From Escherichia coli (GTDB lineage: Bacteria > Pseudomonadota > Gammaproteobacteria > Enterobacterales > Enterobacteriaceae): a stretch of DNA of 41,657 bases. The position numbers and the translations under genes are program-made. Positions 3,811 to 41,657 of the stretch are shown here, piece after piece; position 1 is the stretch's first letter, and every line of letters starts with the position of its first letter. Location of the stretch: the NCBI RefSeq assembly GCF_003334315.1, contig NZ_QOWR01000044.1; one strand, given 5' to 3'. The notes beneath the pieces are model-generated. The model saw only the letters and a list, made by a program, of their open reading frames with translations, was not told where the DNA came from and made no database searches.

Positions 3811-5133
3811 TTGTTTCTCGCACAAGAAATTATTCGTAAAAAACGTGATGGTCATGCGCTAAGCGATGAAGAAATTCGTTTCTTTATCAACGGTATTCGC
3901 GACAACACTATCTCCGAAGGGCAGATTGCCGCCCTCGCGATGACCATTTTCTTCCACGATATGACAATGCCTGAGCGTGTCTCGCTGACCATGGCGATGC
4001 GAGATTCAGGAACCGTTCTCGACTGGAAAAGCCTGCATCTGAATGGCCCGATTGTTGATAAACACTCCACCGGCGGCGTCGGCGATGTGACTTCGCTGAT
4101 GTTGGGGCCGATGGTCGCAGCCTGCGGCGGCTATATTCCGATGATCTCTGGTCGCGGCCTCGGTCATACTGGCGGTACGCTCGACAAACTGGAATCCATC
4201 CCTGGCTTCGACATTTTCCCGGATGACAACCGTTTCCGCGAAATTATTAAAGACGTCGGCGTGGCGATTATCGGCCAGACCAGCTCACTGGCTCCGGCAG
4301 ATAAACGTTTCTACGCGACCCGCGATATTACCGCAACCGTGGACTCCATCCCGCTGATCACTGCCTCGATCCTGGCGAAGAAACTGGCGGAAGGTCTGGA
4401 TGCGCTGGTGATGGACGTGAAAGTGGGTAGCGGCGCGTTTATGCCGACCTACGAACTCTCTGAAGCCCTTGCCGAAGCGATTGTTGGCGTGGCTAACGGC
4501 GCTGGCGTGCGCACCACCGCGCTGCTCACCGACATGAATCAGGTACTGGCCTCCAGTGCAGGTAACGCGGTTGAAGTTCGTGAAGCGGTGCAGTTCCTGA
4601 CGGGTGAATATCGTAACCCGCGTCTGTTTGATGTCACGATGGCGCTGTGCGTGGAGATGCTGATCTCCGGCAAACTGGCGAAAGATGACGCCGAAGCGCG
4701 CGCGAAATTGCAGGCGGTGCTGGACAACGGTAAAGCGGCAGAAGTCTTTGGTCGTATGGTAGCGGCACAAAAAGGCCCGACCGACTTCGTTGAGAACTAC
4801 GCGAAGTATCTGCCGACAGCGATGCTGACGAAAGCAGTCTATGCTGATACCGAAGGTTTTGTCAGTGAAATGGATACCCGCGCGCTGGGGATGGCAGTGG
4901 TTGCAATGGGCGGCGGTCGTCGTCAGGCATCTGACACCATTGATTACAGCGTCGGCTTTACTGATATGGCGCGTTTGGGCGACCAGGTAGACGGTCAGCG
5001 TCCGCTGGCGGTTATCCACGCGAAAGACGAAAACAGCTGGCAGGAAGCGGCGAAAGCGGTGAAAGCGGCAATTAAACTTGCCGATAAAGCACCGGAAAGC
5101 ACACCAACTGTCTATCGCCGTATCAGCGAATAA
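3811..5133 (+). CDS. deoA: Thymidine phosphorylase (TTG start)
   Basis: 440 aa ([25 protein letters not shown]...); TTG start with GGGAGG 5 nt upstream. Confidence 0.95.
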
Positions 5134-5163: not shown

Positions 5164-6408
<1,245 letters not shown>

Positions 6409-13230: not shown

Positions 13231-13384
13231 TTGTAGGCCGGAAAAGGCGTTCACGCCGTATCCGGCATTCGGTGCTCAATGCCTGATGCGACGCTTACCG
13301 CGTCTTATCAGGCCTGGAGATTCACAACGTATTGAAATTTCTTGGTTTGTAGGCCGGATAAGGCGTTCACGCCGCATCCGGCAT
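13231..13384. repeat. REP/BIME cluster
   Basis: gtaggccgg...gcatccggca and gcctgatgcgacgct...cttatcaggcc units between the convergent nadR and ettA. Confidence 0.8.
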
Positions 13385-17627: not shown

Positions 17628-17776
17628 TGTAGGCCTGATAAGACGCGGCAGCGTCGCATCAGGCATCGTGCACCGAATGCCGGATGCGGCGTGAACGCCT
17701 TATCCGTCCTACAAATACCCGTAATTTCAATATGTTTGGTAGGCATGATAAGACGCGGCAGCGTCGCATCAGGCGC
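17628..17776. repeat. REP/BIME cluster
   Basis: Two copies of aggc(c/a)tgataagacgcggcagcgtcgcatcaggc and an intervening gccggatgcggcgtgaacgccttatccg unit between trpR and yjjX. Confidence 0.8.
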
Positions 17777-26380: not shown

Positions 26381-26449
<69 letters not shown>

Positions 26450-26470
26450 CGCGTACAGGAAACACAGAAA

Positions 26471-26503
26471 AAAGCCCGCACCTGACAGTGCGGGCTTTTT
26501 TTT
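26471..26503 (+). terminator. thr operon attenuator (rho-independent terminator)
   Basis: gcccgca/tgcgggc stem followed by 8 consecutive T. Confidence 0.9.
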
Positions 26504-26529
26504 CGACCAAAGGTAACGAGGTAACAACC

Positions 26530-31744: not shown

Positions 31745-31866
31745 TCCGGCATTCAGCGCCTGATGCGACGCTGGCGCGTCTTATCAGGCCTACGTGAATT
31801 CTGCAATATATTGAATCTGCATGCTTTTGTAGGCCGGATAAGGCGTTCACGCCGCATCCGGCATTG
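31745..31866. repeat. REP/BIME pair
   Basis: gcctgatgcgacgctggcgcgtcttatcaggcctac and gtaggccggataaggcgttcacgccgcatccggca between the convergent yaaX and yaaA. Confidence 0.8.
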
Positions 31867-40272: not shown

Positions 40273-40300
40273 TCGCCCTATAAACGGGTAATTATACTGA

Positions 40301-40333
40301 CACGGGCGAAGGGGAATTTCCTCTCCGCCCGTG
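40301..40333 (+). other. Stem-loop in the dnaK-dnaJ intergenic region
   Basis: cacgggcg...cgcccgtg inverted repeat with a long loop, no T-run; candidate mRNA processing or attenuation element within the dnaKJ transcript. Confidence 0.5.
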
Positions 40334-40360
40334 CATTCATCTAGGGGCAATTTAAAAAAG

Positions 40361-41491
40361 ATGGCTAAGCAAGATTATTACGAGATTTTAGGCGTTTCCA
40401 AAACAGCGGAAGAGCATGAAATCAAAAAGGCCTACAAACGCCTGGCCATGAAATACCACCCGGACCGTAACCAGGGTGACAAAGAGGCCGAGGCGAAATT
40501 TAAAGAGATCAAGGAAGCTTATGAAGTTCTGACCGACTCGCAAAAACGTGCGGCATACGATCAGTATGGTCATGCTGCGTTTGAGCAAGGTGGTATGGGC
40601 GGCGGCGGTTTTGGCGGCGGCGCAGACTTCAGCGATATTTTTGGTGACGTTTTCGGCGATATTTTTGGCGGCGGACGTGGTCGTCAACGTGCGGCGCGCG
40701 GTGCTGATTTACGCTATAACATGGAGCTCACCCTCGAAGAAGCTGTACGTGGCGTGACCAAAGAGATCCGCATTCCGACTCTGGAAGAGTGTGACGTTTG
40801 CCACGGTAGCGGTGCAAAACCAGGTACACAGCCGCAGACCTGTCCGACCTGTCATGGTTCTGGTCAGGTGCAGATGCGTCAGGGATTCTTTGCCGTGCAG
40901 CAGACCTGTCCACACTGTCAGGGCCGCGGTACGCTGATCAAAGATCCGTGCAACAAATGTCATGGTCATGGTCGTGTTGAGCGCAGCAAAACGCTGTCCG
41001 TTAAAATCCCGGCAGGGGTGGACACTGGAGACCGCATCCGTCTTGCGGGCGAAGGTGAAGCGGGCGAGCATGGCGCACCGGCAGGCGATCTGTACGTTCA
41101 GGTTCAGGTTAAACAGCACCCGATTTTCGAGCGTGAAGGCAACAACCTGTATTGCGAAGTCCCGATCAACTTCGCTATGGCGGCGCTGGGTGGCGAAATC
41201 GAAGTACCGACCCTTGATGGTCGCGTCAAACTGAAAGTGCCTGGCGAAACCCAGACCGGTAAGCTATTCCGTATGCGCGGTAAAGGCGTCAAGTCTGTCC
41301 GCGGTGGCGCACAAGGTGATTTGCTGTGCCGCGTTGTCGTCGAAACACCGGTAGGCCTGAACGAGAAGCAGAAACAGCTGCTGCAAGAGCTGCAAGAAAG
41401 CTTCGGTGGCCCAACCGGCGAGCACAACAGCCCGCGCTCAAAGAGCTTCTTTGATGGTGTGAAGAAGTTTTTTGACGACCTGACCCGCTAA
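40361..41491 (+). CDS. dnaJ: Co-chaperone DnaJ (Hsp40)
   Basis: 376 aa from the ATG at 40361 ([59 protein letters not shown]...), HPD motif, Gly/Phe-rich linker, four CxxCxGxG zinc-finger repeats. Confidence 0.99.
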
Positions 41492-41502
41492 CCTCCGCAA
41501 AA

Positions 41503-41520
41503 GCCTGCCCGTGGGCAGGC
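41503..41520 (+). terminator. Stem-loop after dnaJ (probable terminator)
   Basis: gcctgcc/ggcaggc stem with loop cgtg, 12 bp after the dnaJ stop; weak T-tract. Confidence 0.5.
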
Positions 41521-41582
41521 CTGGGTAAAACCAGGGTGCGTTGAAGATATGCGAGCACCTGAAAAGTGGCGGGGATCACTCC

Positions 41583-41657
41583 CATAAGCGCTAACTTAAG
41601 GGTTGTGGTATTACGCCTGATATGATTTAACGTGCCGATGAATTACTCTCACGATAA
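41583..41657 (+). mobile_element. IS186 left end (terminal inverted repeat plus start of transposase), truncated by the window edge
   Basis: cataagcgctaacttaagggttg matches the IS186 terminal inverted repeat; the flanking ggggatcactccc fits the G-run/C-run IS186 target preference. Confidence 0.8.
41638..41657 (+). CDS. insL: IS186 transposase InsL, 5' fragment only
   Basis: atgaattactctcacgataa = MNYSHDN, the N-terminus of the IS4-family IS186 transposase; continues beyond the window. Confidence 0.7.

Follow-up and report, generated by a model that had tools for sequence, protein, structure and literature searches.

IS186 next to dnaJ in a non-K-12 Escherichia coli strain: a known element in the 3' hairpin of the hokC toxin mRNA

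IS186 belongs to the IS4 family of insertion sequences; it appears in PGAP annotations as 'IS4-like element IS421 family'. A hot spot for its insertion at the lon promoter is said to have been described by SaiSree et al. in 2001. The target of IS186 is highly specific: In mutation-accumulation work it inserts in the motif GGGG(N6/N7)CCCC, in both orientations, and some of these sites were hit many times (Lee et al. 2016, PMC5009759). The homologues of the hok/sok toxin-antitoxin system are also associated with insertions, as they adjoin hot spots of mobile elements in E. coli (bioRxiv 10.1101/527788). A fold-back mechanism, based on the tac and fbi (fold-back inhibition) elements of the mRNA, has been described for hok of plasmid R1 (PMC9841398).

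Two hok loci of E. coli K-12 contain IS186: gef/hokC, with the IS186A copy, and hokE, with the IS186B copy. The element downstream of gef/hokC is thought to disrupt fbi and the processing of the mRNA; the gef transcript is reportedly still made and still regulated by an antisense RNA (PMC3562002). As for hokE and its IS186, they appear only as deletion end points in PMC4557228.

We have analyzed the end of a stretch of 41,657 nucleotides of E. coli DNA (the window), which stops 75 bp inside an IS186 element next to dnaJ. It is a known element at a known position, so that the finding is ordinary and already known. Our preferred explanation, which we hold with considerable confidence, is that a full-length IS186 has entered the loop of the 3' hairpin of hokC, severing the mRNA from its fbi element, at a recurrent hot spot, and that the dnaKJ operon is untouched. 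A previous reading of the window, made from the sequence only, had described this insertion as a mark of K-12-type strains located at the heat-shock locus.

The dnaJ coding sequence is found at 40361-41491 (plus strand), as given by the list of open reading frames, by the annotation of the identical sequence in genomes PI12 and 13C1065T and by comparison with K-12. Its TAA stop codon is at 41489-41491. The reading frame is intact, and the insertion has no effect on the coding sequence. IS186 starts at 41583 with its left terminal inverted repeat, 23 bp in length, CATAAGCGCTAACTTAAGGGTTG (41583-41605, plus strand), which is an exact match in all its 23 positions. This start is 92 bp beyond the dnaJ stop and 63 bp beyond the stem-loop which follows the gene. 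The sequence-only reading had given the same repeat and the same spacings, and all its coordinates are reproduced. Only one copy of the 23-mer exists in the window, also with a tolerance of three mismatches, and none of 100 shuffled sequences contains it.

The first 75 bp of the element (41583-41657, plus strand) are identical, in 75 of 75 positions, to K-12 IS186A and to the copies in E. coli B REL606 and PI12. In K-12 MG1655, they are the start of the feature annotated as 'insertion sequence:IS186A'. The gene for the transposase, insL, begins within this region (41638-41657, plus strand), and its translation gives MNYSHD followed by a cut codon. An InsL N-terminus with the sequence MNYSHDN had been suggested: The ATG at 41638 and the first six residues are there, while the seventh codon is incomplete in the window (AA-) and would code for N, as it does in complete genomes.

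A GC-rich hairpin, GCCTGCC-CGTG-GGCAGGC (GCCTGCCCGTGGGCAGGC), is located at 41503-41520, between the convergent dnaJ and hokC transcripts. It had been considered as the terminator of dnaJ. The hairpin is indeed found at this place, and it folds on both strands, with -14 kcal/mol on the plus strand and -18.2 on the minus strand, but it is followed by UUUU on the minus (hokC) strand only; the dnaJ strand continues as CUGGGUAAAA. It is presumably a hairpin common to the two convergent transcripts, and a role as terminator may be supposed for either strand. Directly past this hairpin there is a smaller one, CUGG-GUAAAA-CCAG (41521-41534), which varies among strains: It is CCTGGGTAAAACCAGG in the window, CCTGGGTAAAAATAGG in K-12, and CTTGGGTAAAATTAGG in REL606. 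The changes in REL606 are found on both arms, and pairing is kept through G-U pairs on the dnaJ strand, not on the hokC strand.

Some other RNA features of the window may be mentioned here. A scan of the window tail with Rfam gives tpke11 between dnaK and dnaJ. This small RNA family (RF02031, 69.6 bits) is found at 40283-40360, where it fills the dnaK-dnaJ intergenic region. The same scan gives no match in 41492-41657, a region to which no Rfam model of the hok 3' tail corresponds, the model of the hok leader falling outside the window. Two REP-type copies (Rfam naRNA4, 44-122 and 145-223) are present at the start of the window and a multi-copy insertion sequence at its end, as would be seen in a short-read contig bounded by repeats. 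Further matches at the gathering score (13236-13314, 17632-17709, 26385-26504, and 31786-31828) correspond to two more naRNA4/REP copies, the thr operon leader and the ES036 small RNA.

The complete element can be studied in genomes which match the window. In PI12, the window sequence runs on into a full IS186 of 1339 bp, with 100% identity to K-12 IS186A. Its inverted repeats, of 23 bp, are perfect, and the 10-bp direct repeat GGATCACTCC is found on both sides. The right inverted repeat is a perfect reverse complement of the left one in 13C1065T, K-12, PI12, and ECCTRSRTH03, and in these four genomes GGATCACTCC appears again next to it. The same arrangement, including the right repeat and the duplication, is found in E. 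coli B REL606. Beyond the point where the window ends, the DNA of the proxy genomes (PI12, 13C1065T, K-12, and REL606) does continue as IS186, in agreement with the previous assignment of the 75 bp to this element.

The transposase of PI12, which has 370 amino acids, matches the IS4 family transposase model NF033592 of NCBIfam (133.3 bits, with a cut-off of 115) and DDE_Tnp_1 of Pfam (PF01609, E = 3.6e-26). The IS186 of 13C1065T has 1338 bp: A deletion of 1 bp (alignment column 1132) causes a frameshift in the transposase, and there is also one SNP. This frameshift might be genuine, the gene being a pseudogene, or it might come from a sequencing error in a homopolymer. As the last 218 bases of the window are found without change in 13C1065T, the window's own copy could be defective as in that genome. 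Judging from all these identities, the 75 bp at 41583-41657 form the left end of what is probably a full-length IS186, a DDE transposon of the IS4 family. The genome from which the window comes probably carries the whole element, and its right-hand junction would read ...CAACCCTTAAGTTAGCGCTTATG, followed by GGATCACTCCCCGCC.

The 75 bp might also be a solo end, a truncated remnant of IS186 or an artefact at the edge of the assembly. Nothing is readable past 41657, where the window ends within the element, and the other end of the window adjoins REP-type repeats (the naRNA4 matches in 44-223), as in a contig from short reads which is bounded by repeats. However, when a complete element is present, a contig is expected to break inside such a multi-copy insertion sequence, and a stop 75 bp inside it has the look of a short-read assembly break at a repeat. 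Furthermore, the element has its full length of 1338-1339 bp in five out of five filled genomes inspected (13C1065T, K-12, PI12, ECCTRSRTH03, and REL606), and the left junction is common to 681 genomes. When records with the right junction were sampled (at least 80% coverage), about seven out of nine corresponded to chromosomal hokC, in agreement with complete elements being about as numerous. We consider a remnant or an artefact very unlikely.

The strain is E. coli, but the sequence of the window indicates that it is not K-12. Over its last 25 kb, the window shows 100% identity to a number of complete E. coli chromosomes of animal and human origin, PI12 being the best match. The genes follow the order yjjW-deo-...-creABCD-arcA-thrLABC-...-dnaK-dnaJ. 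Compared with that of K-12, the DnaJ allele has three changes, R19H and R22K, both in the J-domain, and R336K. PGAP assigns to this protein the accession WP_001118446.1, which is the same in E. coli B REL606 and in many animal isolates. There are four SNPs relative to K-12 in the 91-bp spacer which follows dnaJ, and the flanks are about 1.2% divergent. On the other hand, the left end of 75 bp, the insertion point, the orientation and the duplication GGATCACTCC are the same as in K-12 IS186A (insL1, b0016), located between dnaJ and hokC/mokC. The description of the element as a K-12-type copy is thus accurate as far as its placement is concerned; in spite of this coincidence, the copy in the window is probably an independent hit, as discussed below.

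An empty allele of the target site is found in Combat13F7: GGCGGGGATCACTCCCCGCC, that is, GGCGGGG-ATCACT-CCCCGCC. The left half of this palindrome, which is also the 3' stem-loop of hokC, is found in the window at 41568-41582 as GGCGGGG-ATCACT-CC(CCGCC). It includes one copy of the 10-bp target duplication, GGATCACTCC, at 41573-41582, identified by its second copy, which follows the element on the right in other genomes. When the target is reconstituted, it is a perfect GGGG(N6)CCCC: The window has GGGGATCACTCC at 41571-41582, up to the element, and the empty allele has GGGGATCACTCCCC. It had been noticed that the flank suits the GC-rich target of IS186, and the reconstituted site gives this observation a more precise form, as it is the motif of Lee et al. 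(PMC5009759). The duplication may be read as 6 bp (ATCACT), 10 bp (GGATCACTCC) or 12 bp (GGGATCACTCCC), depending on the boundary chosen, because the ends of the element (...GGG/CCC...) repeat the G and C runs of the target. No other GGGG(N6)CCCC or GGGG(N7)CCCC is found in the 41.6-kb window. The site resembles the hot spots of Lee et al. in its GGGG-N6-CCCC motif, in the use of both orientations and in its repeated independent hits. It differs from those hot spots in its location, as the motif is here part of the 3' UTR of a toxin mRNA, where the DNA encodes an RNA hairpin, and not part of a promoter or of a coding sequence.

The nature of this site becomes clear in Combat13F7, where dnaJ and hokC face each other as convergent genes, with a gap of only 103 bp. 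The GGCGGGG...CCCCGCC hairpin belongs to the hokC mRNA, in which it forms a stem-loop 22 bp beyond the hokC stop. In every filled genome inspected, mokC/hokC is annotated directly past the element, on the strand opposite to dnaJ. The interrupted feature is the 3' hairpin of the mRNA of a convergent type I toxin-antitoxin locus, hokC (gef)/mokC/sokC, not a feature of dnaJ. The interval of 91 bp which separates dnaJ from IS186 would be the severed 3' tail of hokC, which includes fbi, CUUCAACGCACCC, now an orphan at 41534-41546 (minus strand), as located by its predicted pairing.

This pairing can be studied in the complete locus of Combat13F7, which is matched by Rfam RF01794 at 5273-5425, minus strand, with 119.8 bits (gathering score 59). 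In spite of its name, 'sok', this model falls on the strand of the hok mRNA and covers the hok mRNA leader. It places the 5' end of the hokC mRNA at GGGUGCUUGAGG (tac), which is complementary to the fbi sequence CUUCAACGCACCC. The 3' end of the mRNA probably lies past the insertion point, given the UUUU-followed hairpin at 41503-41520 of the minus strand and a total length of 399 nt, similar to that of R1. We have folded this 399-nt mRNA of Combat13F7, from the 5' end placed by RF01794 to the UUUU-followed hairpin adjoining dnaJ. The fold has -166.2 kcal/mol (z = -7.9). In the predicted minimum free energy structure, nucleotides 1-12 pair with positions 41534-41546 of the window (minus strand), with a pairing probability of 0.95-1.0. 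According to this model, the pairing is the tac/fbi fold-back helix of R1 hok.

We have also folded interrupted transcripts, in which the tail is replaced by 100, 200 or 320 nt of read-through into IS186, in either orientation. The tac-fbi helix is then replaced by a local pairing of nucleotides 1-8 with nucleotides 52-58, which is the first helix of the Rfam model, the 'open' form. The local pairing is near-certain with 100-200 nt of read-through in the orientation of the window, and with 100, 200, and 320 nt in the opposite one; it drops to about 0.56-0.68 with 320 nt in the window orientation. A second, weaker partner for the 5' end, rich in G-U pairs, is predicted when the hokC mRNA is cut just before fbi: ACUUUUCAGGUGCUC, directly after the target hairpin (Combat13F7 5080-5095; window 41552-41567, minus strand). 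It is likewise stranded on the dnaJ side of the element.

A comparison with R1 hok/sok shows several similarities: a leader of the RF01794 type, a predicted tac-fbi helix of 12 bp and a local 5' hairpin once the tail is gone. There are also differences. In R1 the tail is slowly removed by exonucleases, whereas here it is lost for good by an insertion in the DNA. Chromosomal hokC also differs in that it reportedly does not give post-segregational killing.

The hokC site is not the only hok locus with IS186. In K-12 hokE, IS186B is found in the homologous hairpin (GCGGGG-AGTAAT-CC/CATAAG...), 21 bp beyond the stop (K-12 607836-609351). In both K-12 loci, as in the window, the element is about 22 bp past the hok stop, in a GGGG-N6-CCCC hairpin, and hok is parted from fbi. 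The orientation is different: The left end of the element faces hok in hokE, while the right end faces it in hokC, both in K-12 and in the window. Plasmids provide a further case. On pB27_2 (NZ_AP027426.1, 1264-2600), an IS186 with 99.85% identity is found in GGCGGGG-ATCTCT-CCCCGCC, with the duplication GGATCTCTCC. This plasmid has phage-type genes, its hok locus is annotated as hokD and the transposase is annotated as frameshifted. A variant fbi (CCUCAAUGCACCC, or GGGTGCATTGAGG on the plus strand) is stranded on the far side of the element, and its predicted pairing is kept.

In order to determine the distribution of the insertion, we compared synthetic junction queries with 5426 complete E. 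coli genomes. The site between dnaJ and hokC is empty in 3815 genomes (about 70%). IS186 is present in the orientation of the window and K-12 in 681 genomes, and in the opposite orientation in 924 (about 17%). These three classes account for 5420 of the 5426 genomes. The figures given refer to the left junction; queries with the right junction give 820 and 939 genomes, compared with 681 and 924. We considered double head-to-head insertions or rearrangements as a cause of this surplus, but the extra records sampled are plasmid hok loci. In fact, the two sampled right-junction records which do not correspond to hokC are plasmid hok genes with IS186 in the homologous hairpin, about 91% identical. 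Judging from these sampled records, plasmid hok loci probably account for the surplus of about 140 matches.

An example of the opposite orientation is ECCTRSRTH03: The insertion point and the duplication, GGATCACTCC, do not change, and the element is inverted. The right flank (3236 bp) is identical in PI12, with the K-12 orientation, in Combat13F7, which is empty, and in ECCTRSRTH03, which is inverted. The 91-bp spacer haplotype of the window is also found in all three states. The comparison of K-12 with PI12 is equally informative: There are no differences in the 1339 bp of the element and 40 in 3462 bp of the flanks, a rate at which about 15.5 should be seen in the element (Poisson P = 2e-7). 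In K-12 itself, IS186A and IS186B are identical over 1291 comparable bp. These sequence comparisons point to recent and repeated hits of one hot spot, rather than to one 'K-12-type' event which was later inherited. Contrary to what had been suggested, IS186 in this place is not a dependable mark of a K-12-type strain, since it is found here in a strain which is not K-12 and the site may be empty, filled or inverted on identical flanks.

Nevertheless, some data would also agree with a common origin of this insertion and K-12 IS186A, by descent or by homologous recombination, in which case it would be a true lineage marker. The site, the orientation and the 10-bp duplication are shared with K-12 and with E. 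coli B REL606, K-12 and PI12 agree fully in the first 227 bp of the right flank, and the close matches of the window have genomes of roughly 4.5-5.0 Mb with a conserved, K-12-like gene order. This explanation has to be compared with the absence of differences in the element next to flanks about 1.2% divergent, with four SNPs inside the 91 bp adjoining its left end, and with the existence of the exact flank haplotype of the window both empty and with an inverted element. In addition, the motif is a documented target of multiple hits in both orientations (PMC5009759). Gene conversion among IS186 copies could erase their divergence, so that the common origin is only weakened by these arguments. 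On the whole, we find a common origin rather unlikely, although it deserves more credit than the other alternatives. Since this recurrent hot spot is used throughout the species, in both orientations, the arrangement found here, similar to that of K-12, has most likely arisen by a separate insertion.

The location of the element, only 92 bp from dnaJ, had led to the suggestion that it might affect the heat-shock operon by outward promoter activity. A consensus scan of the whole element and its flanks in PI12, which is a crude method, finds no sigma-70-like site, when 1.4 would be expected, and no such site is found in 41300-41657 of the window. Outward promoter activity is thus not supported, although this is a weak negative result. 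As to a recombination substrate, which had also been suggested, every copy of an insertion sequence could serve as one. A search of the literature on insL1 and dnaJ found nothing relevant. As regards the heat-shock locus, the element splits the 3' hairpin of the convergent hokC mRNA, while the dnaJ reading frame and the hairpin which follows it are intact. There is no evidence in our data of any effect on dnaKJ.

Some read-through of dnaKJ into IS186, in the sense orientation of insL, is conceivable, as the hairpin after dnaJ has no run of U on the dnaJ strand. Heat-shock transcripts could reach insL in this way, because this gene is co-directional with dnaKJ and is located behind such a hairpin. 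In the other direction, any transcript leaving the element towards the left would run antisense to dnaJ, at its 3' end, and come upon the UUUU-followed hairpin. Moreover, dnaKJ is the same in the roughly 70% of E. coli genomes where the element is absent and in the 17% or so where it is inverted. It is very improbable, in our opinion, that the element matters to the heat-shock operon, either by an outward promoter or by read-through. A broader scheme may also be imagined, in which the GGGG-N6-CCCC hairpins at the 3' end of hok genes are landing pads for IS186, the insertions are selected for disabling the fold-back control of the toxin and the read-through of dnaKJ couples insL to stress; we regard it as highly speculative and improbable. 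The preferred explanation remains an insertion in the hokC hairpin at a recurrent hot spot.

According to this explanation, IS186 has entered the loop of GGCGGGG-ATCACT-CCCCGCC, duplicating GGATCACTCC. The hokC mRNA would be cut off from its last 90 nt, approximately, which would be left stranded between dnaJ and IS186. In the normal situation, the pairing of fbi and tac would keep the full-length mRNA closed, untranslatable and stable. In the folding model, a hokC transcript without fbi would run into IS186 and fold straight into the 'open' 5' hairpin, which by analogy with the R1 hok paradigm would be both the target of Sok and translatable. The regulated pool of latent mRNA would be lost. 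This consequence for the expression of hokC is what the predicted folds suggest. Its effect on the phenotype may be nil, because even an IS-free hokC, from ECOR24, reportedly gives no post-segregational killing (bioRxiv 10.1101/2025.08.07.668861).

In summary, the gene affected by this insertion is the hokC toxin-antitoxin locus and not the chaperone operon, a result which has little weight beyond a correct annotation. IS186 at this site is not suitable as a marker of K-12 or of any lineage, as some 30% of complete E. coli genomes have the site filled, in one orientation or the other. The 91-bp 'spacer' which follows dnaJ would be a stranded part of the hokC mRNA, with its fbi element, and this would explain its conservation.
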